DNA of 16,065 bases, taken from contig CANMWZ010000058.1 of NCBI GenBank assembly GCA_947501605.1, positions 1 through 16,065 of the forward strand, written 5' to 3'. Position numbers and translations under genes: made by a program. The first letter of the stretch is position 1, and every line of letters starts with the position of its first letter. This DNA comes from Planctomycetota bacterium. GTDB taxonomy: Bacteria > Planctomycetota > UBA1135 > UBA2386. Positions 1-16,065 of this stretch are shown piece by piece. Below the pieces are notes generated by a model. That model did not search any database and was not told the origin of the DNA. It saw only the letters and a list, made by a program, of their open reading frames with translations.

Positions 1-773
1 AGACCCGCGGCGGCGTGCACTTGCAGGATGGCGAGGCGTTCGCCGTGGCTCGGGGTCGGGAGCAACCCGGGAAGCCGGCGGCAGAGAGCGCTCTTGCCGC
101 TGCCGGGCGGGCCGACAAACAGGACGTTGTGGCCGCCAGCCGCGGCGACGCACAACGCGCGTTTGGGGGTTTCATGGCCGCGGATGTCGCTGAGATCGAT
201 CGTCGAGGGCACTCGCACAGAGGGATGCGCGGTGACCGGATCGAGTTCGCGACGTCCGGCGACCCAATAGATCGCATCGGCAAGCGTCTCGGCGCCGAGG
301 ACACGGAGTCCATCGATGCCGGCGCATCGGCTTGCGTCCACGGTGCTGCACAGCAGTGTGTGCAGTCCGCGAGCCCGCGCCATCAGCGCGATGCTCACGG
401 CACCTCGTGCCGGCAGGAGCTGTCCGCGGAGGGACACTTCGCCGCAGGCGCAGAGGCCCAGCGTGCGAGATGGCGCAAACATGCCGCCCGCGCCAGCAAG
501 TGCCAGGGCGAGCGGCAGGTCGAAGCCCGAGCCGCTCTTGCGCATCGAGGCCGGCGCGAAGTTGACGGTGGTTACGCCCCTTGGCGTCGGCAGGGCGAGG
601 CAGAAGAACGCGTTGAGCACGCGATGATAGGCCTCGCGGACTGCGGCATCGACGAGGCCGAGGATGCGTGGCGTGCCGTCGCTGGCCGACCGCGCGGTGG
701 CCTCGACGGTGATCGGCTCGGCATCGACGCCGACGACCATGCCGGTCGTGATCGTGACGGTAGGTGGGTGCAC
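1..773 (-). CDS. comM: ComM/YifB family Mg-chelatase-like AAA+ ATPase, 3' end truncated by the window edge
   Basis: Manual minus-strand translation from GTG at 773 (alternative in-frame ATG at 740) gives MHPPTVTITTGMVVGVDAEPITVE...ILGLVDAAVREAYHRV...TVNFAPASMRKSGSGFDLPLALAL (Lon-like N-domain motifs of ComM). It continues to DLSDIRGHETPKRALCVAAAGGHNVLFVGPPGSGKS (Walker A). The frame is open to position 1, so it is absent from the ORF track. Confidence 0.93.
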   Translation of the reverse strand, partial: MHPPTVTITTGMVVGVDAEPITVEATARSASDGTPRILGLVDAAVREAYHRVLNAFFCLALPTPRGVTTVNFAPASMRKSGSGFDLPLALALAGAGGMFAPSRTLGLCACGEVSLRGQLLPARGAVSIALMARARGLHTLLCSTVDASRCAGIDGLRVLGAETLADAIYWVAGRRELDPVTAHPSVRVPSTIDLSDIRGHETPKRALCVAAAGGHNVLFVGPPGSGKSALCRRLPGLLPTPSHGERLAILQVHAAAG

Positions 774-862
774 AGCCCTTCTGTGCGAGGAAGGGCCTCG
801 CGGTTACGCGCGAAGTTGCGGATCGGGCTTGCGAGCCGATGCCACTCGCCTGCGCGTTGGCC

Positions 863-1246
863 TCAGCCGCGTTCGGGCAGGCCGCGCAGGAATCGGATCA
901 ACGCCACGGCGCCAGCGCGCGAACCGGGGTGAAAGCCGACTGCGGTCGTTCGGCTCTTGGCGTCGTCGCGGACCAGTTCTGGGCCGTAGGTCAGGGCCGC
1001 GAGTTCGGGGTCGACTTCGCGCAGGGAATCGACGATCGCACCGGCTAGTCCGGGCGCGACATCGGGTCCGACCACGATGCAATGGTGGCCGCCAGACCCA
1101 AAGAACGCCCTCTGCGCGGCCGCGAGGTCGCGGGCGATGTCGATCGCAAACCCGTGGTCCTCCAGCTGGGACAGCAGGGACTGCATCGGTCGCTCATCCC
1201 GGAGAACGGCGAGCAGGTCGAGGCGTCGGTCAGGTGGAAGGCGCAC
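863..1246 (-). CDS. Small CheY/receiver-like protein (degenerate pseudo-receiver), hypothetical
   Basis: C-terminal part of ORF 863..1453. RLDLLAVLRDERPMQSLLSQLEDHGFAIDIARDLAAAQRAF...HCIVVGPD follows the beta1-alpha1-beta2-alpha2-beta3 pattern of receiver domains. Start uncertain: GTG 1246 chosen, alternatives ATG 1315/1321 or 1186. A start at 1453 would overlap the divergent gene. Confidence 0.62.
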   Translation of the reverse strand: MRLPPDRRLDLLAVLRDERPMQSLLSQLEDHGFAIDIARDLAAAQRAFFGSGGHHCIVVGPDVAPGLAGAIVDSLREVDPELAALTYGPELVRDDAKSRTTAVGFHPGSRAGAVALIRFLRGLPERG

Positions 1247-1319
1247 GCAGGTCGTGCATCGGCTCTGCAGTCGAGGCGAGTCAAGGTCGGTGGAGGTCTG
1301 CGCCGATGCAGCCATTGTC

Positions 1320-2363
1320 ATGGTCGTTCGCAACTCGGTTGTTCTCGTTCTTTCTGCGGCCCTCGCATGTGCACAGACCACCTTGGTCTTGCCGTCTTCG
1401 CATGCGACGCTCGAGGGCACGACCTCGACCAACGTCCCGTTCGGTCGCAGCACGCCGATGCGCGTGCAGCAGATCTACGATGCGATGCTGTTCTCTGCAT
1501 CCGGCACGATCACACAGATCGCCTTCCGACTGGACGGCGGCAGCACCGCAACGGGCAAGCAGGTCGACTGCGAGATCCGCATGTCGACGACGCCGCTCGC
1601 GCTGGTCGCAGTGAGCTCGACGTTTGCGGCGAATCGCGGCACCAACGAGACCGTCGTACTGCCGCGTCAGTTGCTCACACTGCCGTCGATGGCCTCGGCG
1701 CAGACGCCGTCGCCAATGCTGGCGCCGATCCCGCTCGCAGTGCCGTTCGCATACAACCCGCAGCTAGGTTCGCTCTGCATCGAGATTGTGGTCTTTGGTC
1801 AGCCCCCCGGGGGCTACACGCTCGACGCTACGTTTGTCTGCAACAGCCCTGAGGTCGCCATCGGTCCCGCCTCGTGCCAGCCGGCGACGGGTCTGCCGTT
1901 GCGGGTCGAGAGCGCCTCCGCCCAGGTGCTCTGGGGTCGCCCGTGGCTCACGCGCGCACTCGATGCTCCCCCTGGATCGCTCGTCATTCTGGCGCTCGGA
2001 TCCACAGAGGTGGGGACCTGGAACGGTGCCCCATTGCCAGTCGACCTCAGCACGGCGGGTGCGCCAAGCTGCTTTGTGAGCATCGACGCGTTGCAGACCT
2101 ACTTCCAGGTGGCGTTGGGCGATGGTTCGGCGACCTTCAACTTCGGGATTCCCAACGACCCGCGGCTCATCGGCGTGACGTTGCGCTACCAGGCCGGGGC
2201 CTTGCAGAATGGGCTGAATGCCCTGGGCGTCATCACCAGCCAGGCCAAGAAGGTCACGATCTGTGGGCTCGAACCAGTGGTGCGTGTCTGGTCGAGTGGC
2301 ACCACGGCTACGGATGGCGTGAAGGAACTCGGTACCGCACCCGTGATCGAAGTCCGGCTGTAG
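1320..2363 (+). CDS. Secreted hypothetical protein with planctomycete-type C-terminal beta domain
   Basis: ATG 1320 gives a signal peptide MVVRNSVVLVLSAALACA|QTT. The N-domain is beta-rich (RVQQIYDA...ITQIAFRLDG...STFAANRG...IPLAVPFAYNP). It is followed by LPVDLSTAGAPSCFVSID...FGIPNDPRLIGVTLRYQAGALQNGLNALGVITS, a pattern I recall from many secreted proteins of uncultured planctomycetes. Codon usage is GC3-rich. Confidence 0.8.
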   Translation: MVVRNSVVLVLSAALACAQTTLVLPSSHATLEGTTSTNVPFGRSTPMRVQQIYDAMLFSASGTITQIAFRLDGGSTATGKQVDCEIRMSTTPLALVAVSSTFAANRGTNETVVLPRQLLTLPSMASAQTPSPMLAPIPLAVPFAYNPQLGSLCIEIVVFGQPPGGYTLDATFVCNSPEVAIGPASCQPATGLPLRVESASAQVLWGRPWLTRALDAPPGSLVILALGSTEVGTWNGAPLPVDLSTAGAPSCFVSIDALQTYFQVALGDGSATFNFGIPNDPRLIGVTLRYQAGALQNGLNALGVITSQAKKVTICGLEPVVRVWSSGTTATDGVKELGTAPVIEVRL

Positions 2364-2563
2364 GACGCGGCGAGCCCCGAGCGAGCCGGGTCCGCCGCAG
2401 CCGGGCAACTCGCGCAGCGTTGCGGTCCACTACGAGAAGATCGCGGTAACGGCGCTCGGCGGTGAGGATACCAGCGTCGCGGTAGGACGGATCGTCCGCA
2501 CCGTCCTGGTCGCCCAGGGAAAGGCTCGAAGTTCCGGCCGTTGCCAGCGTCCATGGCGCGCGC

Positions 2564-2588
2564 GGAACCCGATCTTGCGGTCGCCGTT
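2564..2588 (+). promoter_or_regulatory. Candidate ECF sigma factor promoter GGAAC-N16-CGTT
   Basis: GGAAC (2564-2568), a 16-nt spacer and CGTT (2585-2588), ending 51 nt before ATG 2640. This matches the -35/-10 consensus described for EcfG/SigH-type ECF sigma factors. Confidence 0.45.
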
Positions 2589-2639
2589 GCCGCCGCCCCT
2601 TCGATTGCTCCGCCCCGGTCCGCCGCCCCTCGCTTCGTA

Positions 2640-5600
2640 ATGACGTTCCTTCGCCGCCGGCTCGCGTTCTTCCCGTTCCTTTTGGTGCTCACGGCCGCAG
2701 TCGTCGCCTGGTCACTCCCTCAGGGCGAAGACCTGCTGATTCAGCGACGGTATCGCGAGGCGGTTGCGGCGCTGGAGGCCGCACTGCCCCTCTCTGCGGT
2801 GGGGGAGCAGGACCGCGTGCTGCTGCTCTTGGGTGAGGCGCAGTGGCTTGCTGGCGACCGGAAGGCGGCAACCGAGACCTTGCAGCGACTTCTGCAAGAG
2901 CAAGCAGGTTCAGGCTACGTGCCGCATGCACGCTATCTGCTGGCCAAGGTACACGAGGGCGATGGCAATCTGCGAATGGCGGCGCAGATCTATCGCGACG
3001 AGAGCGAGCGACTGACTGGGTTCCTGCGCAAGGAAGAGGTCGCCAAGGTCTACCTCGAGCTCGCCGACAAGGCTGCGAGCCAGGACCCGCCGGACAACGG
3101 TCGCGTGGTGACCTTCTGCGACCTTGCGCTCGATCTTGGCTTGCGGCCCGAACGGGCGCGCGGCATCGAACTACGGGCGGCCGAAGCCGCGCTTGCCGGC
3201 GGTGCGCATGCAGAATCGGTGAGGCGCCTAGGACCTCTGGTCGAACTCCTGTCCATCGATGGTGGTAAGCGCAAGGCCATGCTGCTGCTCGGTCGCGCTC
3301 GACTCGCGGGTGGCGAACGGACCGCAGCCCGAGCTGTGCTCCGCGACCTCATCGCGCTCGGCAAGGACGCACCCGAGGCGGGGGACGCTGCCTACGAAGT
3401 GGCTCTGACCTTTGGCGTACCGCAGCCACCGGCGGCGCAACTCGATCGTGCGGTTCAGGCGCTCGAGGACCTTCGCCGCGATTGGCCGGCGCACCAGAAG
3501 GCGCGAGTCGCTCAGTACCTCGCCGCCCAGTGCTACCAGGGTGTTGGCCGCGCCGACGACGCGCTGCGCCTGCTGGCGGCGTTCCTCGAGGCGGAGGCCG
3601 GCAAGGGCGGGGAGGAGATCCCAGCAGCCCGAGCGCTGCGGGGCGACGTGCTCGCGCGCCAAGGCAAGACCGATCTCGCGATTGCTGCATGGCGCGAGTA
3701 CCTGGCGCAGCATCCCGCGCATGCCGATTGGGAGCGCGTGCAGCGCGCAATCGTCGACGCCGAGTGGACGCTCGCCAAGCGCGCCTTCGACGACGGCAAG
3801 TCCTTCTACGGAGCCGCGCGCGAGCGGCTCGATGCGTTTGCCCGCGCCTACCCGCTCGACCACCGCAACCCGTGGATCCTCCTGCTGCGCGGCTCGATGT
3901 GCATGCAAGAAGAGAGCTACGAGGCTGCGCGTGCCGAGTTTGCCCGCTGTGTCAGCAAGTACCCAGGTCGCGAGGAGAGCTCGAGTGCACAGTTGACGAT
4001 CGGCGAGATCTTCGAGACCAAGACCTTTGACTACGAGAAGGCACTCGAGGCCTATCGCGCGGTGACGTGGGGCAGCGCCGCCGCCGTCGCGCAGGAGCGC
4101 GTCGCACGACTGACGCAGACGACGGTTCGCGTTCGCACGCCGCGTGTGTTCCGCACCGACGAGCAGCCGGGGTTCGTGCTGACGTCGCGCAACGTCGAGT
4201 CGGTGCGCGTTCGCGTGTTCCGGCTCGATCTCGAAGACTACTTCCGGGCGACGCATCAGGCCGCCAACGTGCATGAACTCGACATCGAGGTGATCGCCGC
4301 TGACCTGACGTTTGACAGCGCGGTCGCTGGCTACGTTCGCTATTGCGAGACCGAGCGCACGGTGTCGCTGCCGCTCAAGGAGCCCGGCGCGTACGTCGTC
4401 AAGGTCGACGACAAACGCTACGAGGCGACGACCATGGTGCTGGTGAGCGACCTCGCGCTGATCACGAAGTCGAGCCGCCACGAGTTCCTCGTGATGACTC
4501 AGAACACGAAGGAGAACCGCATCGAGGCTGGGGTGAAGGTCGTTCTGGGCGACGCCGAAAAGGTGCTGGCCGAAGGCGTGACGGATGCTCAGGGCTTCTT
4601 TCGCTTCCGCGGCAACGAACTGAAGAACTGCGACTCGCTACGCGTGTTTGCCGTCGCCGCCGGCGGCTCAGGTGCGAGCTCGCTCGATCTGTCCGGCATG
4701 GGCTATTCCGCGGGCCTGCTGCCGCGGGGCTACCTGACGACGGACCGGCCGCTGTACCAGCCCGGCCATCGTGTTCACGGCAAGGGCGTCGTGCGCGAGG
4801 TTCACGATGGCATCTATGCGTTGCCGCAGGCGAGCGGTTACGCCGTGCAGGTGCTGTCGCCGAGCGGTCAAGTCGTGATGTTGCGCGATGTAGCGTTCTC
4901 GCCATTTGGCACCTTCGATTTCGATCTCGATCTCGATGCCGAGGCCGAACTCGGCGAATGGCGCATCACGGTCGGCCTTGCCAAGCGTTCCGATCACCAA
5001 TGGCAGACGACGTTCCACGTCGGTCGCTACGAGCGCCCACGGTTGCAACTGACCATCGAGGTGGCCGAATCTGTGGTCTACCGAGGCGAGCACATCCGCG
5101 GCACGCTACGCGCGCAGTGGTTCTATGGGCAGCCGGCCCAGGGTCGCGACGTCGTCGTGCGTCTGCAAATGCCTGACGGCAGTGTCATGGAGCGTCGAGG
5201 CACCACCAACGCCGCCGGCGAAGTGCCCTTCGAACTGCCGACCGAGGACTTCGCCGAAGAGGCCATGGCGGTGCTCGCGGCCGAGATGCCTGCGGACGGC
5301 GTGGGTTCTGGCTTGGCGGTGCCGATCGCGACCAGCGAACTCGACATCGGAGTCACCACACCGCAGCCGGTCTACCTTGCCGGGGAGCCGTTCGAAGTCT
5401 CGGTTGTCGCCAAGGACCGTTCGGGCAAGCCGCTCCAACGCGAACTGACGGCTGTGTTGCTCGCGCTCGAGACCGATCCGCGCAACGGCACCGTGGCCGA
5501 ACGCGAACTCGAGCGCCGCACCGTGCGCACCACTGCCGATGGCGCGGCGAAGACGACTTTCACTGCCGCCAAGGGTGGCCAGATCCGTGTTCGCGTTCAG

Positions 5601-8600
5601 GCCATCGATCGCTTCGCGGTCCCGGTCAGCAGCGAAGTGCAACTGACCATCAGTGGCGACGATGATGCGCAGCGTCTGCGTCTCCTCTGCGGTCGCGAGA
5701 CTTTCAAGGTCGGCGAGAAGGCCGCAGTGCGCCTGGTCAATCGTGCTGGCGCGCGCCTCGCACTGTTGACTTGGCAAGGCGATGGCATCTTGGCCTGCGA
5801 AACTCGGGTAGTGCCGTCGGGTGAGTCGACGATCGAGATGCTGTTGCAGCCGGAGCATGCACCGAATTTTGCCTTCGCCGTGGCCATGGTTGATGGTGAG
5901 CAGTTGCACACTGCCGAACGGCCGTTTCTGGTGCAACGTGACCTGACGATCGAGCTCGAGGCACCAGCAGTGGCGGCCCCAGGTGGCAAGGTCGACCTAG
6001 TGGTGCGGGTGCGCGATCCGCAGGGTCGTCCGCTGCGCGCCGAGATCTCGGTGGCGATGGTCGATGACGCGCTGTTGGCGCTGCACGGCGACAAGGCGCC
6101 GCCGATCGGCGCCTACTTCTACGGGCAAATGCGCGAGACTGCGTTCCGCACGCAGTCGAGTTGCACGTGGTCGTATGACGGCATCACCCGCGCCGTAGAT
6201 GAGGCGCTGCTGAGCGAAGACGCGCGGCGGGCGCTGCCTGCCGCCGAGGCTCCGACCAGCGTGGCCCTGAGCAAGTCGAGTGACGGGCTGTTCGGGCTCC
6301 TGCCCGGGCAGGATGTGGCTGCGGGTGCCACCGCGTTTGACAGCAAAGAGTGGAATCTAGCCGTTGCCTTCGGCGGCGGTACTGGGTCTCTGAGTGCCCA
6401 GGAGCGCGAGAAGTTGGCATACAAGTTGGGGAGCGGCGCTGGCGCGCAAGACGAAGCCAGCAGAGCGCGTGGTTATGCCAGCTTCGCCGGTCGAGGTGTT
6501 CGCAGCGTCGTCGCTGGGTTGCCCTTCGATCTCGGTGCCGGTGGCTTTGACGACCGCATGGTCACCGACCTCCACGTCGGCCCGACGCTGGGATTGGTGT
6601 TCGCCGGCGAAACTCCGGTTGGCGGCGTGCGCGTAGACTTTCGTGAGACGGGTGTTTGGCTCGCGTCTTTGACCACGGGCGACGACGGGACTGCGCGCGC
6701 GACCATCGTCGTGCCGCACAGCACCACATCCTGGCGTCTGCAAGCGCGTGCCGTTACCGCGGATAGCTGGGTCGGCGAAGGGCGCGGCCAATTGCGCTCG
6801 CAGCGCGATGTCCAGGTTGACATCCAGGGTCCGCCGGTCTTGACCGAAGGCGATGAGGTCGCATTCAGCGCGCGCGTACACAACCTTGGCGCCGAGCGCA
6901 GTAGCGGGTCGATGAAGTTCCGGCGCACGATGGGCGAGAAGACCTTCGAAGACGAGCGGGCAATCGAGCTCTCAGCGGGTGGCGAGTTGACGGTCGAGTA
7001 CCCGTTTGTCGCGGCCACGGCCGGCGCTGTCGAGTTGGAAGCGGGCGCCGCGTTGGGCGCTGCTGTCGATGCACTGAAGCGATCGATCCTCGTGCAGCCG
7101 TTTGGGGTCGAGGTCGTCGAGGGGCGCTCTGGCAGCACGCGCGACCGCGCGGCACTCGATCTGTCGCTGCCAGCTGATGGCGAATTCGCCTGGATGCGGA
7201 TGGTGGTGGAGGTCGGGCCCGATCGAGGCCGCGACCTGCTGCGGGCTGCGATCGGCGGCGGCTACCAGTTGCGCAACTGCGTGCAGGTCGAGTCGACTGT
7301 CCTCGCCCGCAGTAGTCGCGGCCTGTCGGCGTTGCTGGTACTCGACTACCTCGAGCACACGAGCGCACTGCTGCCGCTCGATCGCGAACAGCTGCTGGCC
7401 CAGGCCAACGCCGCACTGCAAGGGCTGATCGGCGCCCAGCTGGCGGACGGCAGCTTCTCCTGGGTCGGCAAACGCAGCCAGGACCTGCGCAGTACGAGCC
7501 AGGCGCTGCGATTTCTGTCGGCATGCGTACGGCGCGGTCTTGGGAATGCCGAGTCGCCACGCAATCGCGCTGCCGAAGCGCTGCTGCAGGCCTCGCGAAG
7601 CGCCGGCAACGATCAGCGGGCTGACCTGATGTGGGCCTTGGCCGTCGACGGCCGCGCCCGATTCGAGGCGCTCAACGCGTTGCATCGGACGCGCAACTCG
7701 CTCGGCGCCGACGGCCTCGCTCGGTTGGCGCTCGCTTGGCAGGCATTCGGGCGTGCCGAGCTCGCCAACGAGGTCCTCGTGGCGCTGCAGAAGGCTATGC
7801 CGCCGACGCTGTTCCAGCAGCTCTCGACCGAGACCGTGGCCCTCGCGGCGCGTGCGCTGCTGACTGCCGATCCGCGCGATGGGCTCGGTGTTGCGGCGGC
7901 AGCGGCTGCGAGTTCGTCGCGGTGCGGTGCGGGATGGTCGACGCCGGAAGCGACGACCGCGGCGATCGCGCTGGCCGCGATGCAACAGCGCGAGGGTGCG
8001 GGGGCCGCGCGGGCTACCGAAGTGACCGTGGTGGTCAACGGCCGCGAGTTGGCGACGACGCCGAAGTCCGCGCAAGGTCTCGGCAGCGTGCTGGTCGTCC
8101 CGAGCGAGTGGCTGCAGGCTCGCGGCAACGCGGTGCAGATCCAAGTCGCCGGCGGCGGCGAGGCGTTCTACTCGATCACGCTGGTGGGCTTCCGCAAGGG
8201 CTTTGACGACAAGGTCGCCAATGACTCGCGCGTGCACCTGCAGCGCACCTACCTCGCGGCGCCGCGTCGGTTTGCCGGCCGCGATGTGCCATCTGGCTTC
8301 AGTGTGGTGCAAGGTCAGGGCTACCGGTCCTTCACCAATGAGGTGTCGCGCCTCCGCGTGGGCGAGTCAGCGCTGGCGCAGACCCACTTCGCGGTGCACG
8401 ACCAAGCGCTGGCGCTCCGCGGTTCGCCGCTGGTGCTCGAAGAGCCGCTTCCTGCGGGCTGTTCGGTGCCGCGCGACTCGATCCAGGGTCCATTCGACTA
8501 CGTCGAGGTGCAGCCCGATCGACTCGTTTTCTACTTCCGCGAAGGCGTCAATCTAGGCGTTGTCAGCTACCAACTGCAGGCTCGGTTTGCGGGCTCGTTC

Positions 8601-10523
8601 CGGGCGCTGCCGTCTTTGGTCTACGGCGCCATGCGCCCCGAGTTGCGGTCCTTCGGCAAGGTCTCGACGCTCAGGATCGATGGCAGCCAGCAGGGGGAGC
8701 CCGAGGCCTACCGGTTGACGCCGGATGAGCGCTTCTACCTTGGCAGGTCCGAGTTCGAGGCCGCCGAGAAGGCGACGGGCCAGGAGCGCCAGCGCGCGAG
8801 CACCGCCGCGCAAGAGCACTTGGCGGCACTGCTGAGCGAATGGCAGAAGACTGAGTACCGCCTCCGGGACGACGTCGCCACTGAGGTCGCGCGCATGATG
8901 CTCTACTTGGGTATCGAGCGCGGCGAACAGAAGCAGGTCGTCGAGTACTTCGAGCAACTGAAGGACCGTCAGCCGGATCTCGTGATTCCGTTCGACAAGA
9001 TCCTCGCAGTGGGGCGCAGCTACTTTGATCTCGGCGAGTTCGAGGCGGCGTTGCTGGTGTTCCGCGGCACGGTCGAATCCTCGTTCTTGAAGGACGCGGC
9101 GGTAGCAACCACGTTGAGCGAACGCGGCGAGCACAGGGCCTCGTCGAAGTTCCTGGAACAGTTGCTACTCGCCTATCCGGACCTGCCGACCATGCGGACT
9201 CTCCGCTACAGCATCGCGCAGCAACTTGCCGCCATGGCGGCCGAGGCGGATCCTCTGGTCGCAGTGGATGAGCGCATGGGCTCCATCCAGGAGCTGCGCC
9301 AACGGTCCTTGCAGCAGTTCCGTGAGTTCTTGATTCTCTATCCTGAGGACCCGCTGGCCGAAGAAGTGTCCTTCGCCTGGGCTACGACGCTGCTCGAAGG
9401 CGGAGACCTAAAGGGTGCGCTGGCAGTGGCCGAAGCCGGGCTGCAGCGCTATCCGGACAGCAGCTTCCAAGACGAACTGCTCTACACCGTCGGCTACGCG
9501 CAGTTCGCTCTCGGGCAGCATGACGCGGCATTTGCCGCATTGGAGCGCGTCGCCACCGAGTCCTTCGCTACGGCGACGGGCGGCAAGAGTGAGAGCGAAA
9601 GCAAGTGGCATGCGGTCTACCTCCAGGGGCAGATCTGGCACGCGCGCGGCGAGCCCGAGAAGGCACTCGTGGCCTACGACCAAGTGAAGGACCGTTTCAG
9701 CGACGCGGTGGAAGCGAGTGACTACTTCCGCCACAAGGTGCTGACGATCGACGAGGCCACGACGTTTGCGACCGACGTGTCAGCAGAACTGGCGATCAAG
9801 TTCCGCAACATCGCGCGGGCGCAGGTGCAGGTGTTCCGCGTCGACCTGATGCGGCTTTACTTGTTGGAGAAGTCGCTGAACGACATCCGCGGCATCCAGC
9901 TTCATGGCATCAAGCCGCTGCTGAGTCTGGAAATCGATCTCGGCTCCGGGCGCGACTACAAGGACGCGATCCGCAAGGTTCCGCTCGATGTCAAAGAGCC
10001 GGGCGCCTACCTCTGTGTCGTGCGCGGCGGCGACGTGATCGCTACCGGTATGGTGCTGAAGAGCGACCTTCGCATCGAGGCACAGGAGCAGTTCGCTGAG
10101 GGCCGTATGCGTGTGAACGTCCGCCGTGGGGATGCCTACGTCCATGGCGCGCACGTGAAGATGGTCGGCAGCGGCGACGGTCGGTTCCGCAGTGGGGACA
10201 GCGATCTCCGCGGCGTGTTTGCTGGCGACGGTCTCGTTGGCACGGCGACAGTGCTCGTGGCGCAGGGCGAGAACTACGCGTTCTACCGTGGCTCGGGCGT
10301 GCACCAGGCAACCCGGATCCGCGAGCCGCAGCGGCAACAGGAGTCGGAGCTTGGAGAGGGTCGCGTTGAGCAAGGGCAGGCGGCTGGCCTGCTGCCATTG
10401 TTCGATGCGCTTGACAACAACCTGAATCTCAACGCTTCGAACCGCGGCAGTCAGGTGCTGTGGCTGAAGAACGAGGTCATGAACAAGAAACAGAAGGGCG
10501 TCGAGGTGTATCGCACGAAGTGA
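2640..10523 (+). CDS. Giant secreted TPR-containing bacterial alpha-2-macroglobulin family protein (MG domains, bait region, TED-like and MG8 domains, second TPR+MG module)
   Basis: ORF 2541..10523; ATG 2640 gives signal peptide MTFLRRRLAFFPFLLVLTAAVVAWS (2627 aa). TPR helices occupy ~2730-4110. A2M motifs seen: GYLTTDRPLYQPGH (~4728), AEISVAMVDDALLAL (~6040), VRVDFRETGVW...HSTTSWRLQARAVT (~6627-6760), TED-like AQLADGSFSW (~7434) and WSTPEATTAAIALA (~7935), MG8-like LVLEEPLPAGC...YQLQARFAGSFRALPSLV (~8430-8620). A second TPR block spans ~8720-9730 and MG-like domains ~9740-10300. Confidence 0.9.
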   Translation: MTFLRRRLAFFPFLLVLTAAVVAWSLPQGEDLLIQRRYREAVAALEAALPLSAVGEQDRVLLLLGEAQWLAGDRKAATETLQRLLQEQAGSGYVPHARYLLAKVHEGDGNLRMAAQIYRDESERLTGFLRKEEVAKVYLELADKAASQDPPDNGRVVTFCDLALDLGLRPERARGIELRAAEAALAGGAHAESVRRLGPLVELLSIDGGKRKAMLLLGRARLAGGERTAARAVLRDLIALGKDAPEAGDAAYEVALTFGVPQPPAAQLDRAVQALEDLRRDWPAHQKARVAQYLAAQCYQGVGRADDALRLLAAFLEAEAGKGGEEIPAARALRGDVLARQGKTDLAIAAWREYLAQHPAHADWERVQRAIVDAEWTLAKRAFDDGKSFYGAARERLDAFARAYPLDHRNPWILLLRGSMCMQEESYEAARAEFARCVSKYPGREESSSAQLTIGEIFETKTFDYEKALEAYRAVTWGSAAAVAQERVARLTQTTVRVRTPRVFRTDEQPGFVLTSRNVESVRVRVFRLDLEDYFRATHQAANVHELDIEVIAADLTFDSAVAGYVRYCETERTVSLPLKEPGAYVVKVDDKRYEATTMVLVSDLALITKSSRHEFLVMTQNTKENRIEAGVKVVLGDAEKVLAEGVTDAQGFFRFRGNELKNCDSLRVFAVAAGGSGASSLDLSGMGYSAGLLPRGYLTTDRPLYQPGHRVHGKGVVREVHDGIYALPQASGYAVQVLSPSGQVVMLRDVAFSPFGTFDFDLDLDAEAELGEWRITVGLAKRSDHQWQTTFHVGRYERPRLQLTIEVAESVVYRGEHIRGTLRAQWFYGQPAQGRDVVVRLQMPDGSVMERRGTTNAAGEVPFELPTEDFAEEAMAVLAAEMPADGVGSGLAVPIATSELDIGVTTPQPVYLAGEPFEVSVVAKDRSGKPLQRELTAVLLALETDPRNGTVAERELERRTVRTTADGAAKTTFTAAKGGQIRVRVQAIDRFAVPVSSEVQLTISGDDDAQRLRLLCGRETFKVGEKAAVRLVNRAGARLALLTWQGDGILACETRVVPSGESTIEMLLQPEHAPNFAFAVAMVDGEQLHTAERPFLVQRDLTIELEAPAVAAPGGKVDLVVRVRDPQGRPLRAEISVAMVDDALLALHGDKAPPIGAYFYGQMRETAFRTQSSCTWSYDGITRAVDEALLSEDARRALPAAEAPTSVALSKSSDGLFGLLPGQDVAAGATAFDSKEWNLAVAFGGGTGSLSAQEREKLAYKLGSGAGAQDEASRARGYASFAGRGVRSVVAGLPFDLGAGGFDDRMVTDLHVGPTLGLVFAGETPVGGVRVDFRETGVWLASLTTGDDGTARATIVVPHSTTSWRLQARAVTADSWVGEGRGQLRSQRDVQVDIQGPPVLTEGDEVAFSARVHNLGAERSSGSMKFRRTMGEKTFEDERAIELSAGGELTVEYPFVAATAGAVELEAGAALGAAVDALKRSILVQPFGVEVVEGRSGSTRDRAALDLSLPADGEFAWMRMVVEVGPDRGRDLLRAAIGGGYQLRNCVQVESTVLARSSRGLSALLVLDYLEHTSALLPLDREQLLAQANAALQGLIGAQLADGSFSWVGKRSQDLRSTSQALRFLSACVRRGLGNAESPRNRAAEALLQASRSAGNDQRADLMWALAVDGRARFEALNALHRTRNSLGADGLARLALAWQAFGRAELANEVLVALQKAMPPTLFQQLSTETVALAARALLTADPRDGLGVAAAAAASSSRCGAGWSTPEATTAAIALAAMQQREGAGAARATEVTVVVNGRELATTPKSAQGLGSVLVVPSEWLQARGNAVQIQVAGGGEAFYSITLVGFRKGFDDKVANDSRVHLQRTYLAAPRRFAGRDVPSGFSVVQGQGYRSFTNEVSRLRVGESALAQTHFAVHDQALALRGSPLVLEEPLPAGCSVPRDSIQGPFDYVEVQPDRLVFYFREGVNLGVVSYQLQARFAGSFRALPSLVYGAMRPELRSFGKVSTLRIDGSQQGEPEAYRLTPDERFYLGRSEFEAAEKATGQERQRASTAAQEHLAALLSEWQKTEYRLRDDVATEVARMMLYLGIERGEQKQVVEYFEQLKDRQPDLVIPFDKILAVGRSYFDLGEFEAALLVFRGTVESSFLKDAAVATTLSERGEHRASSKFLEQLLLAYPDLPTMRTLRYSIAQQLAAMAAEADPLVAVDERMGSIQELRQRSLQQFREFLILYPEDPLAEEVSFAWATTLLEGGDLKGALAVAEAGLQRYPDSSFQDELLYTVGYAQFALGQHDAAFAALERVATESFATATGGKSESESKWHAVYLQGQIWHARGEPEKALVAYDQVKDRFSDAVEASDYFRHKVLTIDEATTFATDVSAELAIKFRNIARAQVQVFRVDLMRLYLLEKSLNDIRGIQLHGIKPLLSLEIDLGSGRDYKDAIRKVPLDVKEPGAYLCVVRGGDVIATGMVLKSDLRIEAQEQFAEGRMRVNVRRGDAYVHGAHVKMVGSGDGRFRSGDSDLRGVFAGDGLVGTATVLVAQGENYAFYRGSGVHQATRIREPQRQQESELGEGRVEQGQAAGLLPLFDALDNNLNLNASNRGSQVLWLKNEVMNKKQKGVEVYRTK

Positions 10524-10607
10524 GCTTGGCCAGGGCCGCAGACGAGCCGCACGCACAGCATCCGGCCGCAGCGACTTTGGGACCTCGATGGCGCGAGTGG
10601 GGCTGGC

Positions 10608-12023
<1,416 letters not shown>

Positions 12024-12084
12024 CTGTAGATCCACCTCGGGTGCCAGAATCTAGCGAACCCAGAGGCGGATACCGAACGGCGAA

Positions 12085-13329
12085 TCAGCGCTTCTGCCCG
12101 CTCCCTTCAGCCTTGACTGGCGCCTGATCCGCGCCGGCTTCGGTGCGAGCGGGTGTCATGGGGGCCACTGAGAGTCCCTCCTGCTCCAAGGTCGCAAGCC
12201 ATGCGGGCCACAGGCTCGGGTCGGCGCCAGGGTCCTTGGACCCGAGTTTCGCTAGCGCACTGCGATAGGCGCGCACCACGCGGACGCGCTCGATCGTGAT
12301 GTTCTGGACCGCGACGTCGAGTACCGAGCCACTGTGCAGCACGTCGATCTTGGGGTCAGCGATGAAGGAGCCCGAGGCGACCTCCACGTCGAAGTCGCGG
12401 ACGTAGGCTTGGGACTGAAGAAACGCGACGTGGGCTCGGTTGTGACCGTTGCCGCCGCCGGCGAGCGCAACGCCTGCTTTGGGGCCAGCGAGGACGAGGG
12501 CGCGGAGAGCGGTGACGTCACCGAGCGCTTCGTAGGCCGCTGCTGTCCGAACGCGAACCTCAGCCGAGGAGTGCTCGAGGCCTGGGGCGAGGTACTCGAC
12601 CGCCGCGTGCGAGAGCCCGAGATCGCGACTCATCCGCATCGCCGCCGTGCGCACGGCGGCGTCAGAGTCGAGGATCGCGGTGCGCCATGCAAATGCGTCG
12701 TTGCCGCCGGTGCCGCGATGCAAGAGTGCTGCGATCGCCAGTTCGCGCCGGTCGCGATCGCTGTTGCGGCGGGCCTCGAGGCGCAGGTCTTTGTCGGCAT
12801 TCGGCTCGCGCGCGAGCAGTGCGACACGGGCCTGTTGTTTGCCGAGGCCATCGTTGCGGCGGTGGCCCCGCAGCAGTTCGCGAACGCGCACGTCGGTGTC
12901 GGCAGTCCGGTACTTGCGGGGCATCAACTCGGGTTCGAGCTGGGTGAGGAAGTCATCGATGCGACGCTGGAGCCGATCGCGATCGCTGGCGGGTGCGGCG
13001 AGTACGACGTCGAGGTGCTGCCACATCTCGGACTCCAGCGCCCAGACATGTGCCTGCAGCGCCAGTTGCAATTGCGCGAACGGCGACTCCGACTGTCCTC
13101 GGGCCAGCTCGAGCAGGCGTTGCTTCAGCGCGGCTTCGGGAGTGCGCTCGACCACGTCGGTGGTCGCCACTCGTACCACGCCGTCGCGAGTGGCAACCGC
13201 GAGGACCTCCTTCTCGTCGGTCACCTTGCCGTAGAGCACACGTCCGTCGCGCAACCGGACTTCGTCGGCGTGCAGGCGTGCTAGGGGAACGAGGAATAGC
13301 AACGACAACACGCTGGTGAGGTGCTTCAT
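12085..13329 (-). CDS. Secreted HEAT-repeat protein with a secretin-like beta-hairpin segment
   Basis: ATG 13329 gives signal peptide MKHLTSVLSLLFLVPLARLHA|DEVRLRDGRVLYGKV (small N-terminal beta domain typical of planctomycete secreted proteins). HEAT-like repeats: LDSDAAVRTAAMRM, LEHSSAEVRVRTAAAYEALGD. The C-terminal part reads DPGADPSLWPAW. Confidence 0.8.
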   Translation of the reverse strand: MKHLTSVLSLLFLVPLARLHADEVRLRDGRVLYGKVTDEKEVLAVATRDGVVRVATTDVVERTPEAALKQRLLELARGQSESPFAQLQLALQAHVWALESEMWQHLDVVLAAPASDRDRLQRRIDDFLTQLEPELMPRKYRTADTDVRVRELLRGHRRNDGLGKQQARVALLAREPNADKDLRLEARRNSDRDRRELAIAALLHRGTGGNDAFAWRTAILDSDAAVRTAAMRMSRDLGLSHAAVEYLAPGLEHSSAEVRVRTAAAYEALGDVTALRALVLAGPKAGVALAGGGNGHNRAHVAFLQSQAYVRDFDVEVASGSFIADPKIDVLHSGSVLDVAVQNITIERVRVVRAYRSALAKLGSKDPGADPSLWPAWLATLEQEGLSVAPMTPARTEAGADQAPVKAEGSGQKR

Positions 13330-13496
13330 GGGCGAGTGGATCTGGCGGCAGCAATGGCCGGGCGGGAGATTGCGGTGGGCAGAGGGGCTCCGATCCGTAG
13401 GATCGACCGAAGTCCGGCATCCCGCACCTTTCTGAGGTTTGCTGCTGACGCGGGCCCTGGCATGGGGTCGGGCGTGCAGCGGCGCCGCGCGCAAGC

Positions 13497-14414
13497 ATGA
13501 ACCGTACCGCGAAACGCACACTTCACGCCGTGTCGCTCCCCGTTCTGGCCGTCATGGCCGTTCTGGCCCCGCTGCGGCAAGGCTCGGCCCAGGATGTCGC
13601 CGAGAAGCCCCAAGCTTCGGTGGCAACGGTGCTTGTGGACGCACTGCGCGCAACCGAAGCGCGCGTGCACTCGGTGCGCCTCGAACTCGAGACGAGCGGT
13701 CGAATGCAGGGCGGACTGTCCTTCTCGACCCGCGGTTCCCTTCGTGTCCTGCGCACAGAACAAGGCCGCGCGGCGGCTATGCACTCGGTAGTCGAGTTCG
13801 ACTTTGCCGACGGGCTCGGTGGCAGCATGGAGACTCTGACGACCGACGATGGCGTCGTCGTGCTCCAGCAGGACCCGACCTTCGGCGAGGTCTGTGTGCG
13901 AATCGACAAGGCGATCGTGGGGGATCTCGAATGGGCCGGCATGGTGCTCGAGAAGACGGACCTGCCGTTCCAAGGCGATCCCCGCGGCTCAGCACCGCTC
14001 GGCAGTGCGATGCTCAGCGATCTTGCACTCCGCTTCGATCTCCAGCCAATCGAGAGGCCCGCGGACCCAGCACGCAACGGTCGCTGGTTTGGTGGCGATC
14101 GTCTCAAGGCCGCCAAGATCGAGGAGGCGGGCAACGAGCTTCCGATCAGCGATCGCGTCGAAGTGTTCGTGCGCGAAGCGGACAACGCGTTGCTCGAGGT
14201 CGTGCATCTCCGCGCCGGAGAGATCGTCCAGCGCATCCATGTGAAGTTGCTCGTGCTGGACGAGCCGATGCCACTCGATTCGTTCCGCATGCGTGACCCC
14301 AGCAAGAAGCCGCGCGATGTGAAGGACCATCCGCCGATGTGGCAACAGATCGAGCAGGTGCTGGAGCGGGCGATGGCGAGGGCGGGGGGCGAACTGCGGC
14401 CCAGCAAGCGCTGA
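13497..14414 (+). CDS. Secreted hypothetical protein, probable LolA/LppX-like fold
   Basis: Signal peptide MNRTAKRTLHAVSLPVLAVMAVLAPLRQGSA|QD. An N-terminal helix is followed by meandering beta strands (VHSVRLELETSG...STRGSLRVLR...SVVEFDF...METLTTDDGVVVLQ) and RVEVFVREADNALLEVVHL...EPMPLDSF, resembling the LolA architecture. The fold assignment is inference. Confidence 0.72.
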   Translation: MNRTAKRTLHAVSLPVLAVMAVLAPLRQGSAQDVAEKPQASVATVLVDALRATEARVHSVRLELETSGRMQGGLSFSTRGSLRVLRTEQGRAAAMHSVVEFDFADGLGGSMETLTTDDGVVVLQQDPTFGEVCVRIDKAIVGDLEWAGMVLEKTDLPFQGDPRGSAPLGSAMLSDLALRFDLQPIERPADPARNGRWFGGDRLKAAKIEEAGNELPISDRVEVFVREADNALLEVVHLRAGEIVQRIHVKLLVLDEPMPLDSFRMRDPSKKPRDVKDHPPMWQQIEQVLERAMARAGGELRPSKR

Positions 14415-14428
14415 GAAAGGCGCCAGAT

Positions 14429-14458
14429 TCCTCAGCCTTCTTCTCCTCAGCCTTCTTC
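14429..14458. repeat. Perfect 15-bp tandem duplication spanning the prfC stop codon
   Basis: TCCTCAGCCTTCTTC occurs at 14429-14443 and 14444-14458. Confidence 0.85.
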
Positions 14459-16030
14459 CTCGGTCGGCGGGTGCTCGAGCAGTTCGAGTCCTTTGTAGCG
14501 CGACTTCGCGTAGTCGATCTCGAACTCACTGTGGAACAGGGCGACGAACCGGCCGGCCTCGTCCTTGACGACCATTGGCAGGATCTCGAGTACTTCGTCG
14601 GTCACGTTCAGTACCCAACGCGCGCGCGACCACGGCTTTCGGTCCATGCGCAGTTGCACGTTGTATTCATTCTCCAGGCGCCATTGGAACACCTCGAGCT
14701 GTAGCTCGCCGATGACGCCGAGGATGGCCTCGCGCGCACCGTGTCGCGGCCAGAACGTCTGCACTACGCCCTCCTCGCCGAGTTGCGCCAGACCCTTGCC
14801 GAAGCTCTTCGACATCGACGGTTCCTTCGGCGCCACCTGCGCGAAGATCTCGGGTGCGAAGCGCGGGAAGTTGCGCACCTGGAACGTCGGGCCACCGCTG
14901 AGGACATCGCCGACGCGGAACAACCCCGGATTGATCAGGCCGATCACGTCACCGGGCCAAGCGTCCTCGATCGAGACGCGCTCCTGGCCGAAGAATCGAT
15001 GCGGATGCGACAGGCGGACATCGCGGCCCATGCGCAGGTGTTTGGCCGCCATTCCGCGCTCGAAATGTCCCGACGTCACGCGCAGGAACGCGATGCGGTC
15101 GCGGTGCATTTTGTCCATGTTCGCCGCGACCTTGTAGACGAAGCCGCTGAAGAACGGGGCGTCGGGCTGCACTTCGCCGTCGAGCGTCGGCAGGGGGCCT
15201 GGTGCGGGCGCGATCTCGAGGAACCGCTGGAGGATGTTCTCGACGCCGAAGTTGGTCAGCGCCGAACAGAAGAACATCGGCGACTGCTGCTGCGCCCGGA
15301 ACTTCTCCATCGTGAACGGCTCCACGCAGGTCTCGACCATGTCGAGGTCCTCGAGCAGTTGCAGATGCGCCTTCTCGCCGAGCATCTCCGTGAGCTTTGG
15401 GTCATCGGGACCGGCAGTCAGCACGCCGGCACGCGTGGCGTTGTGCGCTGTCCGTTCGAACAGGAACACTTCCTTGTCACGCAGCGAGTAGACGCCGCGG
15501 AAGTTCTCGCCCGAGCCGATCGGCCACGTGGCCGGGATCATCGTGATGCCGAGAATCTTCTCGACCTCGTCCATCAGGTCGAGCGCCGCGCGCGCCGGTC
15601 GGTCCATCTTGTTGACCACCGTCACGATCGGAATGCCGCGGTCGCGGCAGACCTTGAACAGCTTCTTGGTCTGGGGTTCGACGCCTTTGGCGGCATCGAT
15701 CAGCATCAGTGCAGCGTCGGCGGCGACCAGCGTGCGATACGTGTCCTCGCTGAAGTCCTGGTGGCCCGGCGTGTCGAGCAGGTTGACGCAATGGCCTTGG
15801 TACTCGAACTGGAGCGCTGAGGAAGTGATCGAGATTCCACGTTTCTTCTCGAGCTCCATCCAGTCGGATGTCGCGTGGGCACCGCCGCGCCGCGCCTTCA
15901 CCGAGCCAGCTTCACGAATCGCTCCGCCGTAGAGCAGCAGCTTCTCGGTGAGGGTGGTCTTGCCGGCGTCTGGGTGGGAGATGATCGCGAACGTGCGCCG
16001 GCGTGCGATCTCGTGCGTCAGTTCGGCCAT
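14447..16030 (-). CDS. prfC: Peptide chain release factor 3
   Basis: RRRTFAIISHPDAGKTTLTEKLLLYGGAI, SDWMELEKKRGISITSS, NLLDTPGHQDFSEDTYRTL, NKMDR, ANMDKMHRDRIAFLRV and GELQLEVFQWRLENEY; 527 aa. Confidence 0.98.
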   Translation of the reverse strand: MAELTHEIARRRTFAIISHPDAGKTTLTEKLLLYGGAIREAGSVKARRGGAHATSDWMELEKKRGISITSSALQFEYQGHCVNLLDTPGHQDFSEDTYRTLVAADAALMLIDAAKGVEPQTKKLFKVCRDRGIPIVTVVNKMDRPARAALDLMDEVEKILGITMIPATWPIGSGENFRGVYSLRDKEVFLFERTAHNATRAGVLTAGPDDPKLTEMLGEKAHLQLLEDLDMVETCVEPFTMEKFRAQQQSPMFFCSALTNFGVENILQRFLEIAPAPGPLPTLDGEVQPDAPFFSGFVYKVAANMDKMHRDRIAFLRVTSGHFERGMAAKHLRMGRDVRLSHPHRFFGQERVSIEDAWPGDVIGLINPGLFRVGDVLSGGPTFQVRNFPRFAPEIFAQVAPKEPSMSKSFGKGLAQLGEEGVVQTFWPRHGAREAILGVIGELQLEVFQWRLENEYNVQLRMDRKPWSRARWVLNVTDEVLEILPMVVKDEAGRFVALFHSEFEIDYAKSRYKGLELLEHPPTEEEG

Positions 16031-16065
16031 GGACGGGGGGCGAACACGTTACGCGTTGCGTCCGC

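Follow-up and report, generated by a model that had tools for sequence, protein, structure and literature searches.

A giant planctomycete protein with an alpha-2-macroglobulin body between duplicated tetratricopeptide-repeat arms and ends homologous to those of CAGE

Known bacterial alpha-2-macroglobulins (A2Ms) follow two designs, being either lipid-anchored with a thioester and PBP1C, or thioester-less and encoded in a mag operon. According to PMC3735191, the type I protein of Escherichia coli, ECAM (YfhM), is a lipoprotein of ~1,650 residues whose thioester motif is CLEQ and whose gene adjoins pbpC, and the type II protein MagD of Pseudomonas aeruginosa, which has no Cys, is encoded in the six-gene magABCDEF operon, works with the operon's products and changes conformation with elastase although it is thioester-less. 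In Tetrahymena and Dictyostelium, four copies of CAGE, a protein of ~2,200 residues, build a hollow homotetrameric cage; the report (10.1101/2025.09.22.677704) counts 3,521 homologues, mostly bacterial and chiefly from Planctomycetota and Verrucomicrobiota, describes CAGE as lacking Pfam domains, names A2M as the top Foldseek match for two of its domains and calls its fold and organisation novel. Here we describe a giant gene on a 16,065-nucleotide stretch of a Planctomycetota genome (contig CANMWZ010000058.1, positions 1 to 16,065; hereafter the window). Its family represents a third, widespread design, in which a trap body lies between duplicated arms of tetratricopeptide repeats (TPRs) and macroglobulin (MG) domains and the gene stands alone.

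An earlier reading made from the DNA letters (the sequence-only reading) had proposed the order signal peptide, TPRs, A2M core, then further TPRs and MG-like domains, and this order was recovered by hidden Markov models (HMMs), AlphaFold models and fold matches (Table 1). Pfam was scanned on the whole protein and on 220-residue windows, and TPR families were found across residues 28-470 and 2120-2380. The A2M domains hold up by HMM, as bMG3 (residues 602-678, 41.8 bits, cut-off 34.9), MG2 (696-794, 75.3 bits, cut-off 32.8), A2M_BRD (1019-1148, 36.6 bits, cut-off 22.7) and A2M (PF00207, 1339-1422, 46.3 bits, cut-off 21) all score above their cut-offs, the last being the sole PF00207 match in the window's genome. 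Pfam also places MG3 at residues 797-872, an MG2/MG4-like domain at 905-990 and a CARDB-like match at 1390-1474, and bMG10 at 1889-2001 falls under its cut-off. The 220-residue windows over residues 1480-1880, thioester domain (TED) included, gave no Pfam match, and neither did residues 2380-2627; the part described earlier as TED-like is missed by Pfam and is backed by the family profile against YfhM and by superposition of the AlphaFold model. NCBIfam returned TPR-type models only, among them TIGR02795 (YbgF) at residues 2223-2307 (96.5 bits, cut-off 90.1).

AlphaFold2 models were built from two 52-sequence alignments, one per half, consisting of the window protein and 51 full-length frames from 50 other genomes; 10 of the 60 fetched loci had no frame above the BLASTP threshold and were left out. 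The models cover residues 1-1200 and 1430-2627, with mean predicted local distance difference test (pLDDT) scores of 90.6 and 88.2, respectively. The N-terminal half is modelled as one long N-terminal helix, ~24 helices to residue 492 and beta-sandwiches beyond, and its solenoid matches the TPRs of MamA, SPY, LGN, CTPR and YbgF (Z 14-17.6). Residues 492-1177 match Salmonella A2M 156-926 (Z 20.9), and residues 604-1177 match the MG1-MG6 ring of the C3/C4 beta-chain (Z 16.9-17.6, ~530 residues). In the second model CUB-TED-MG8 superposes on native TEP1r with Z 30.9 and a root mean square deviation (rmsd) of 3.4 A over 529 residues, followed by native A2M (29.8), CD109 (29.3), C3 (29.0), Salmonella A2M (21.8) and ECAM (21.6); TED itself, residues 1529-1788, matches C4dg (Z 22.8), and Foldseek gives E 2.4e-15 to ECAM from MG7 to the C-terminus. 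Family profiles are collinear with YfhM 241-884 and 1048-1633 (including the segment 1497-1633), with residues ~1440-1800 aligned to YfhM 1048-1414. Protease-induced human A2M (6TAV) fits the model worse (Z 20.4, rmsd 12.5 A), the Foldseek query-normalised TM-scores are 0.19 for activated ECAM versus 0.33 for native, and CUB-TED-MG8 is modelled as packed in the native, spring-loaded A2M state. Two hallmarks of the A2M/TEP/C3 superfamily are present: an MG array with a bait-region domain (BRD), and a CUB split by TED and followed by MG8. The best ESM Atlas scores, 0.75-0.76, serve as a lead only.

Among solved structures, the best sequence and fold matches are the type I A2Ms (ECAM/YfhM 4RTD, 4ZIQ, 4ZIU and 5A42; Salmonella 4U48), and the body is collinear with ECAM from the extra N-terminal MG via MG1-6/BRD, MG7, CUB and TED to MG10. 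Export, predicted for the giant protein, is a trait it shares with ECAM; unlike ECAM it lacks a lipobox and CXEQ, its gene has no pbpC beside it, and it adds a 470-residue N-terminal TPR arm and a 600-residue C-terminal arm of TPRs, two MG domains and a tail. With the type II A2Ms (P. aeruginosa MagD, E. coli YfaS) it shares a signal peptide, judged by eye, without lipobox and the absence of CXEQ, whereas its gene lies outside any mag-type operon and its product has 14 Cys and TPR arms. Its CUB-TED-MG8 resembles that of native TEP1r (2PN5), A2M (7S62), CD109 (8S3O) and C3 (8CEM), with Z 29-31, the top structural scores for this super-domain, and rmsd 3.2-3.8 A over ~530 residues, but identity to these eukaryotic proteins is 13-17%, and they have a thioester and no TPR arms. 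Our literature search found no published description of a TPR-A2M-TPR-MG architecture and the databases use generic names only, which agrees with the earlier view that it is unlike those characterised. Three features are new relative to that view: loss of the thioester, duplication of the arms relative to each other, and their occurrence in CAGE.

The domain map of the sequence-only reading stands, but the state of the thioester has to be corrected, as the window protein has no CXEQ; the aligned site, residues 1546-1552, reads N-C-V-Q-V-E-S, in which Cys is kept and Gln at +3 is missing. PYGCxEQ occurs in 14 of the 52 genome-derived members, 15 keep only the Cys and 23 have neither; the 74 database members include 2 with the motif. 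A FastTree built on the conserved parts (Shimodaira-Hasegawa-like supports, midpoint root, long branches flagged) requires at least three changes of state for the motif, which points to at least three losses of the thioester, and places the window protein in a five-member thioester-less group. The thioester is gone in the window protein and kept in part of the same family, and the family forms a natural series for asking what a thioester is needed for. C5 has no CXEQ yet is counted in the A2M/TEP/C3 superfamily. MagD (PMC3735191) is likewise without CXEQ and still counted in the A2M superfamily.

Residues 1186-1338 occupy the position of A2M baits and are rich in Gly, Ala, Ser and Pro. They form the least conserved and most gapped stretch of the alignment (majority fraction 0.17-0.34), the corresponding segment ranges from 84 to 281 residues in the 52 members, and it is 27% identical to the nearest homologue versus 50-59% in the flanking domains. 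The segment is a candidate for a protease-sensitive bait whose cleavage would trigger a conformational change.

BLASTP within the protein aligns residues 443-605 with residues 2315-2477 (30% identity, E 7e-11), so both ends carry a copy of the segment where the last TPR joins the first MG domain. This self-match recurs in other genomes as second matches that lie ~5.5-6 kb upstream within one reading frame. Conservation is highest in the C-terminal arm (0.55-0.72, with a peak of 0.72 at residues 2101-2150), whose beta-sandwiches carry an invariant G..D.RG motif. For the profile of the C-terminal MG pair, the only PDB matches are N-terminal domains of Salmonella A2M and of ECAM (4ZJH/4ZJG, E 2.6e-5), and the profile aligns with the N-terminal MG pair of standard bacterial A2Ms (hhalign 98.6%). 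In the tail the model has pLDDT <50 at residues 2559-2587 and 87-93 thereafter, and a conserved ending ...GV(E/Q)V...K/R is shared by 37 of the 38 thioester-less members and by 3 of the 14 that have CXEQ; these counts come from related sequences and describe a pattern, not a statistical test. The region equivalent to residues 2551-2627 is absent in 11 of the 14 thioester-bearing members.

The order of domains in CAGE (alpha, six beta-sandwiches, an alpha-split beta, then beta, alpha, alpha, beta, in 10.1101/2025.09.22.677704) parallels that of the giant protein. The likeness extends to Tetrahymena CAGE1, Dictyostelium AbpF and bacterial homologues of ~2,100 residues. Bacterial CAGE proteins, like members of the giant family as judged by eye, have signal peptides, and both families are common in Planctomycetota. 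The CAGE-type end modules, an alpha domain with an MG array and a beta-alpha-alpha-beta C-terminus, are both present in the giant protein. We built a CAGE profile (a 27-sequence alignment from 1,037 matches), and hhalign aligned residues 506-871 of the giant family with CAGE 425-783 (94.7%, E 5.6e-8, 337 columns), the C-terminal half, comprising MG8, TPRs and the two MG domains, with CAGE 1575-2074 (97.3%, E 2e-11, 482 columns), and the C-terminal MG pair alone with the CAGE C-terminus (97.6%, E 3.6e-12, 150 columns). An HMM of the CAGE C-terminus scores at the C-terminal MG pair in all 52 members, from 12.6 bits (the window protein) to 36.3 bits, and the best of 208 shuffled or reversed controls reaches 2.8 bits, below every member; an N-terminal CAGE HMM scores above controls in 50 of the 52. 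By these profile alignments, both ends of the giant protein are collinear homologues of the CAGE ends. The giant protein differs from CAGE in its Pfam-detectable domains and its BRD-bait-MG7-CUB-TED middle, and the tetrameric cage is demonstrated for the eukaryotic CAGE proteins only. The end homology is a new observation. It gives a cage of no assigned function a recognisable ancestry, and it suggests entrapment as a hypothesis that could be put to the test in bacterial proteins.

The window's genome also encodes a predicted exported protein of 2,114 residues with no Pfam match (contig C6:51264-57605, minus strand; L092:2265-8606). The C-terminal MG-pair profile matches it at both ends (E 1.9e-6 and 2.3e-4). 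It shares a 90% cluster with MEQ1633071.1, and both MEQ1633071.1 and its relative WP_372369441.1 are listed in the CAGE table, so the protein is a true bacterial CAGE homologue. By sequence, the window's genome thus has a true CAGE gene as well as the giant TPR-A2M-TPR-MG gene. CAGE was found in 98 of 401 Planctomycetota genomes, with both families in 26, the giant family only in 95 and CAGE only in 72; since co-occurrence is 26 against ~30 expected if independent, the two genes are separate, and neither linked nor exclusive. The bacterial CAGE profile matched no PDB chain at E <= 1, in a set without 11KS/11KT and so uninformative on fold.

Of the 7,998 candidates scored in a database search, 112 proteins had E <= 0.001, and 73 of these, of 2,400-2,900 residues, can be aligned with the query over the full length (26-61% identity). 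They are named 'MG2 domain-containing', 'tetratricopeptide repeat protein', 'TolA-binding protein' or 'YfaS/TolA-binding protein' at source, and the relatives belong to Planctomycetota wherever labelled. Matches to the C-terminal 537 residues (E <= 1e-10) occur in 121 of the 401 Planctomycetota genomes sampled; among high-quality genomes the count is 71 of 244, and by genus it is 93 of 288. The frames carrying this arm are mostly 2,550-2,850 residues long. Within the window's own taxonomic family, one of five other genomes has the gene. One locus (L051, G038:C5:38000-57999) holds two full-length paralogues in tandem, head to tail, of 2,585 and 2,596 residues. A related family of 2,160-2,400 residues (P0085, P0114-P0144), part of it labelled Myxococcota, shares both terminal modules with the giant family, has an A2M core that Pfam hardly detects, and matches CAGE at 93.1%; from its sequence it looks intermediate between the giant A2M family and CAGE. 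One of its accessions is missing from the CAGE table. Planctomycete A2Ms of ~2,055 residues at two loci (L093 and L094, in G043 and G070) begin with a long extension, in which residues ~33-62 give a weak TPR match under the cut-off, have a Pfam-detected TED, and end at bMG10; in sequence terms they are the same body without the C-terminal arm.

The plus strand is open from 2541 to 10523, and the ATG at 2640 yields 2,627 residues beginning MTFLRRRLAFFPFLLVLTAAVVAWS. Homologues begin at an equivalent MxxxR...hydrophobic stretch, which makes the start at 2640 likely; database entry P0002, a cluster, matches the product at 100% but is called 29 residues longer. The single frame noticed earlier is an intact gene, and the statement that it has no lipobox Cys is confirmed, since the first of the 14 Cys is residue 160. 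Among the 46 homologues listed, N-termini are basic, then hydrophobic, then AxA-like and resemble Sec signal peptides by eye, with a lipobox-like pattern in two of the 46. The giant protein is predicted to be exported, presumably via Sec; an A-W-S/L cleavage site is possible within residues 1-25, and the segment may also act as an uncleaved anchor.

We propose that the giant protein is an exported envelope protein of the A2M superfamily that acts as a bait-triggered, non-covalent protease trap, with arms that join copies or dock partners, a proposal whose chances we judge to be about even. A foreign protease would cleave the bait at residues 1186-1338 and set off a change of conformation like that of ECAM or MagD; by analogy, MagD serves as a working model for a thioester-less trap. 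With no covalent link, entrapment would be steric and would need an oligomeric cage as in known A2Ms. Monomeric A2Ms, of which ECAM is one, depend on the thioester to hold their prey, whereas tetrameric human A2M entraps sterically, and a thioester-less member would for this reason most plausibly trap as an oligomer. The arms would join copies into a closed assembly or dock them on partners, with the C-terminal arm, the most conserved part, as the assembly or docking surface. They are the best candidates for the assembly surface because they are the most conserved part, duplicated and common to a proven cage former, and because they are shared with CAGE self-assembly is at least as likely a role as partner binding. 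A bolder version, which we put forward tentatively as possible, makes the family a living bridge from thioester A2M traps to CAGE, so that CAGE is a decayed A2M, the arms build the cage, and the giant protein is itself a closed multimeric cage, a steric trap of proteases or other proteins in the planctomycete envelope.

Several observations weigh against the trap and its link to CAGE. The signal peptides of the window protein and of its homologues were judged by eye from sequence, and residues 1186-1338 could be merely a relaxed, disordered linker. The arms do not simply substitute for the lost thioester, since members that still have it possess them too. The middle, residues 865-1935, has no collinear CAGE match (69%, an MG cross-match only), the full-length CAGE profile (E <= 0.01) finds only the CAGE gene and misses the window gene in their common genome, and five accessions of the giant family are all missing from the CAGE table. 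Standard, armless A2Ms do just as well against the N-terminal MG array of CAGE (96.0%), which leaves the C-terminal CAGE match as the only one specific to the giant family.

In a second explanation, which we regard as unlikely though worth keeping in view, the protein is a monomeric periplasmic macroglobulin tethered by TPR arms of the YbgF, CpoB or BamD type to partners in the envelope, for instance peptidoglycan synthases, Tol-like proteins or lipoproteins of the outer membrane. The arms would then stand in for a lipid anchor and for PBP1C or the Mag proteins. This follows the sequence-only reading, which had proposed a putative soluble, complement-like envelope defence or scaffold protein in which fused TPR arms replace partner subunits. 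It draws on the TIGR02795 score above cut-off, on the N-terminal arm profile, which matches CpoB 6G5S (E 1.6e-16) and YbgF 2XEV (E 2e-16), on the C-terminal arm profile, which matches BamD and CpoB, and on the lack of a lipobox and of a partner gene nearby. Such TPR matches are generic, however, as a designed consensus TPR (9QHB, E 9.4e-55) outscores them. CpoB is a small periplasmic protein with an N-terminal coiled coil and one TPR domain, encoded in the tol-pal cluster; the giant protein does not belong to YbgF/CpoB, as its score arises from TPR repeats within a protein of 2,627 residues with no tol-pal genes nearby. No partner is conserved in the neighbourhood, and the same arms occur in CAGE, including eukaryotic proteins that have no bacterial envelope.

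The protein may instead be a CAGE-like hollow container for non-protease cargo, whose body no longer senses proteases and whose 'bait' is a flexible linker, an improbable reading in our estimation. It would fit with loss of the thioester, homology of both end modules to CAGE and the P0085-like family, which shows that the body can decay while the ends persist; CAGE itself has no assigned function, and no protease link is reported for it (10.1101/2025.09.22.677704). Against a container, the body is well conserved and modelled in the spring-loaded native state, relatives retain the canonical thioester, and the same genome has a separate true CAGE gene, the two families being distributed independently. 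An assembly chimera or mis-called gene fusion, considered only for the size of the gene and its high G+C content, which favours long spurious frames, has next to no chance and found nothing in its favour: it is refuted by the full-length homologues in other genomes, namely the 73 end-to-end database proteins and the 51 frames from 50 genomes, and by a G+C content that is uniform along the whole gene.

Table 1. Positions of the giant gene, its predicted domains and its neighbours in the window.
Feature	Position	Strand	Basis or remark
Whole gene, 2,627 codons + stop	2640..10523	+	Open frame, ATG at 2640, full-length homologues at 43-61% identity
Signal-like hydrophobic N-terminal segment, residues 1-25	2640..2714	+	Read from sequence; no Cys
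N-terminal TPR solenoid, residues 26-492, ~24 helices / 12 TPR-like repeats	2715..4115	+	Pfam TPR, model
Extra N-terminal MG-like beta-sandwich, residues 495-603	4122..4448	+	Paralogue of first C-terminal sandwich
MG1-MG6 ring including bait-region domain, residues 604-1177	4449..6170	+	Pfam, C3/C4 fold match
Bait-like hypervariable region, residues 1186-1338 (153 residues)	6195..6653	+	Conservation, length spread
MG7 (Pfam A2M), residues 1339-1422	6654..6905	+	PF00207
CUB (split), TED residues 1529-1788, MG8/bMG10 residues ~1889-2018	6927..8693	+	Model, profile vs YfhM
Former thioester site NCVQVES, residues 1546-1552	7275..7295	+	Aligned with PYGCxEQ of relatives
C-terminal TPR solenoid, residues 2028-2364	8721..9731	+	Pfam TPR, TIGR02795, model helices
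Two C-terminal MG-like beta-sandwiches, residues 2367-2484 and 2489-2550	9738..10289	+	Model, profiles
C-terminal tail: disordered linker, helix residues 2589-2614, terminal strand ...GVEVYRTK	10290..10520	+	Model, conservation
comM/yifB-like Mg-chelatase-type ATPase, N-terminal part	3-773	-	Cut by window edge
Predicted secreted protein, ~340 residues, no Pfam match	1077-2363, likely start near 1320	+	277 bp upstream of giant gene
gnd, 6-phosphogluconate dehydrogenase	10608-12035	-	
Secreted protein of unknown family, HEAT-like in one relative	12085-13521	-	Convergent, downstream of giant gene
Predicted secreted protein, 305 residues, no Pfam match	13497-14414	+	
prfC, release factor RF3	14447-16030	-	

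The giant gene is alone and has no conserved neighbour. We compared 20 kb around 20 other members with the window by all-against-all BLASTP (21 loci), and found no flanking family common beyond close kin, in agreement with the stand-alone gene proposed earlier. The sole flanking family shared beyond near-identical loci is the HEAT-like secreted protein, present in 4 of 21 loci, all from one order; it was rejected as a partner, the pattern being likely inherited synteny. For a scan of the flanks 121 open reading frames (ORFs) were picked, 12 of L045 and L046 were dropped (their synteny is nearly identical to that of L044) and two window ORFs were swapped, leaving 109 ORFs from the window and 18 of the 20 loci. 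Among these 109 there is no penicillin-binding, transglycosylase or further A2M family at E <= 1e-5, and the window flanks contain no pbpC, mag-like or tol-pal genes, which bears out the absence of pbpC and mag-like neighbours noted from the letters. A promoter and terminator scan gave nothing above shuffled expectation.

The window neighbours also include two uncharacterised ORFs. In none of the 20 other loci does a homologue of the upstream secreted protein (1077-2363) accompany the giant gene. An antisense ORF at 13523-14407 (minus strand), of the same length as the 13497-14414 frame, is probably spurious. For the protein encoded at 13497-14414, the nearest relative (L032) is the only one with a homologue in the corresponding position.

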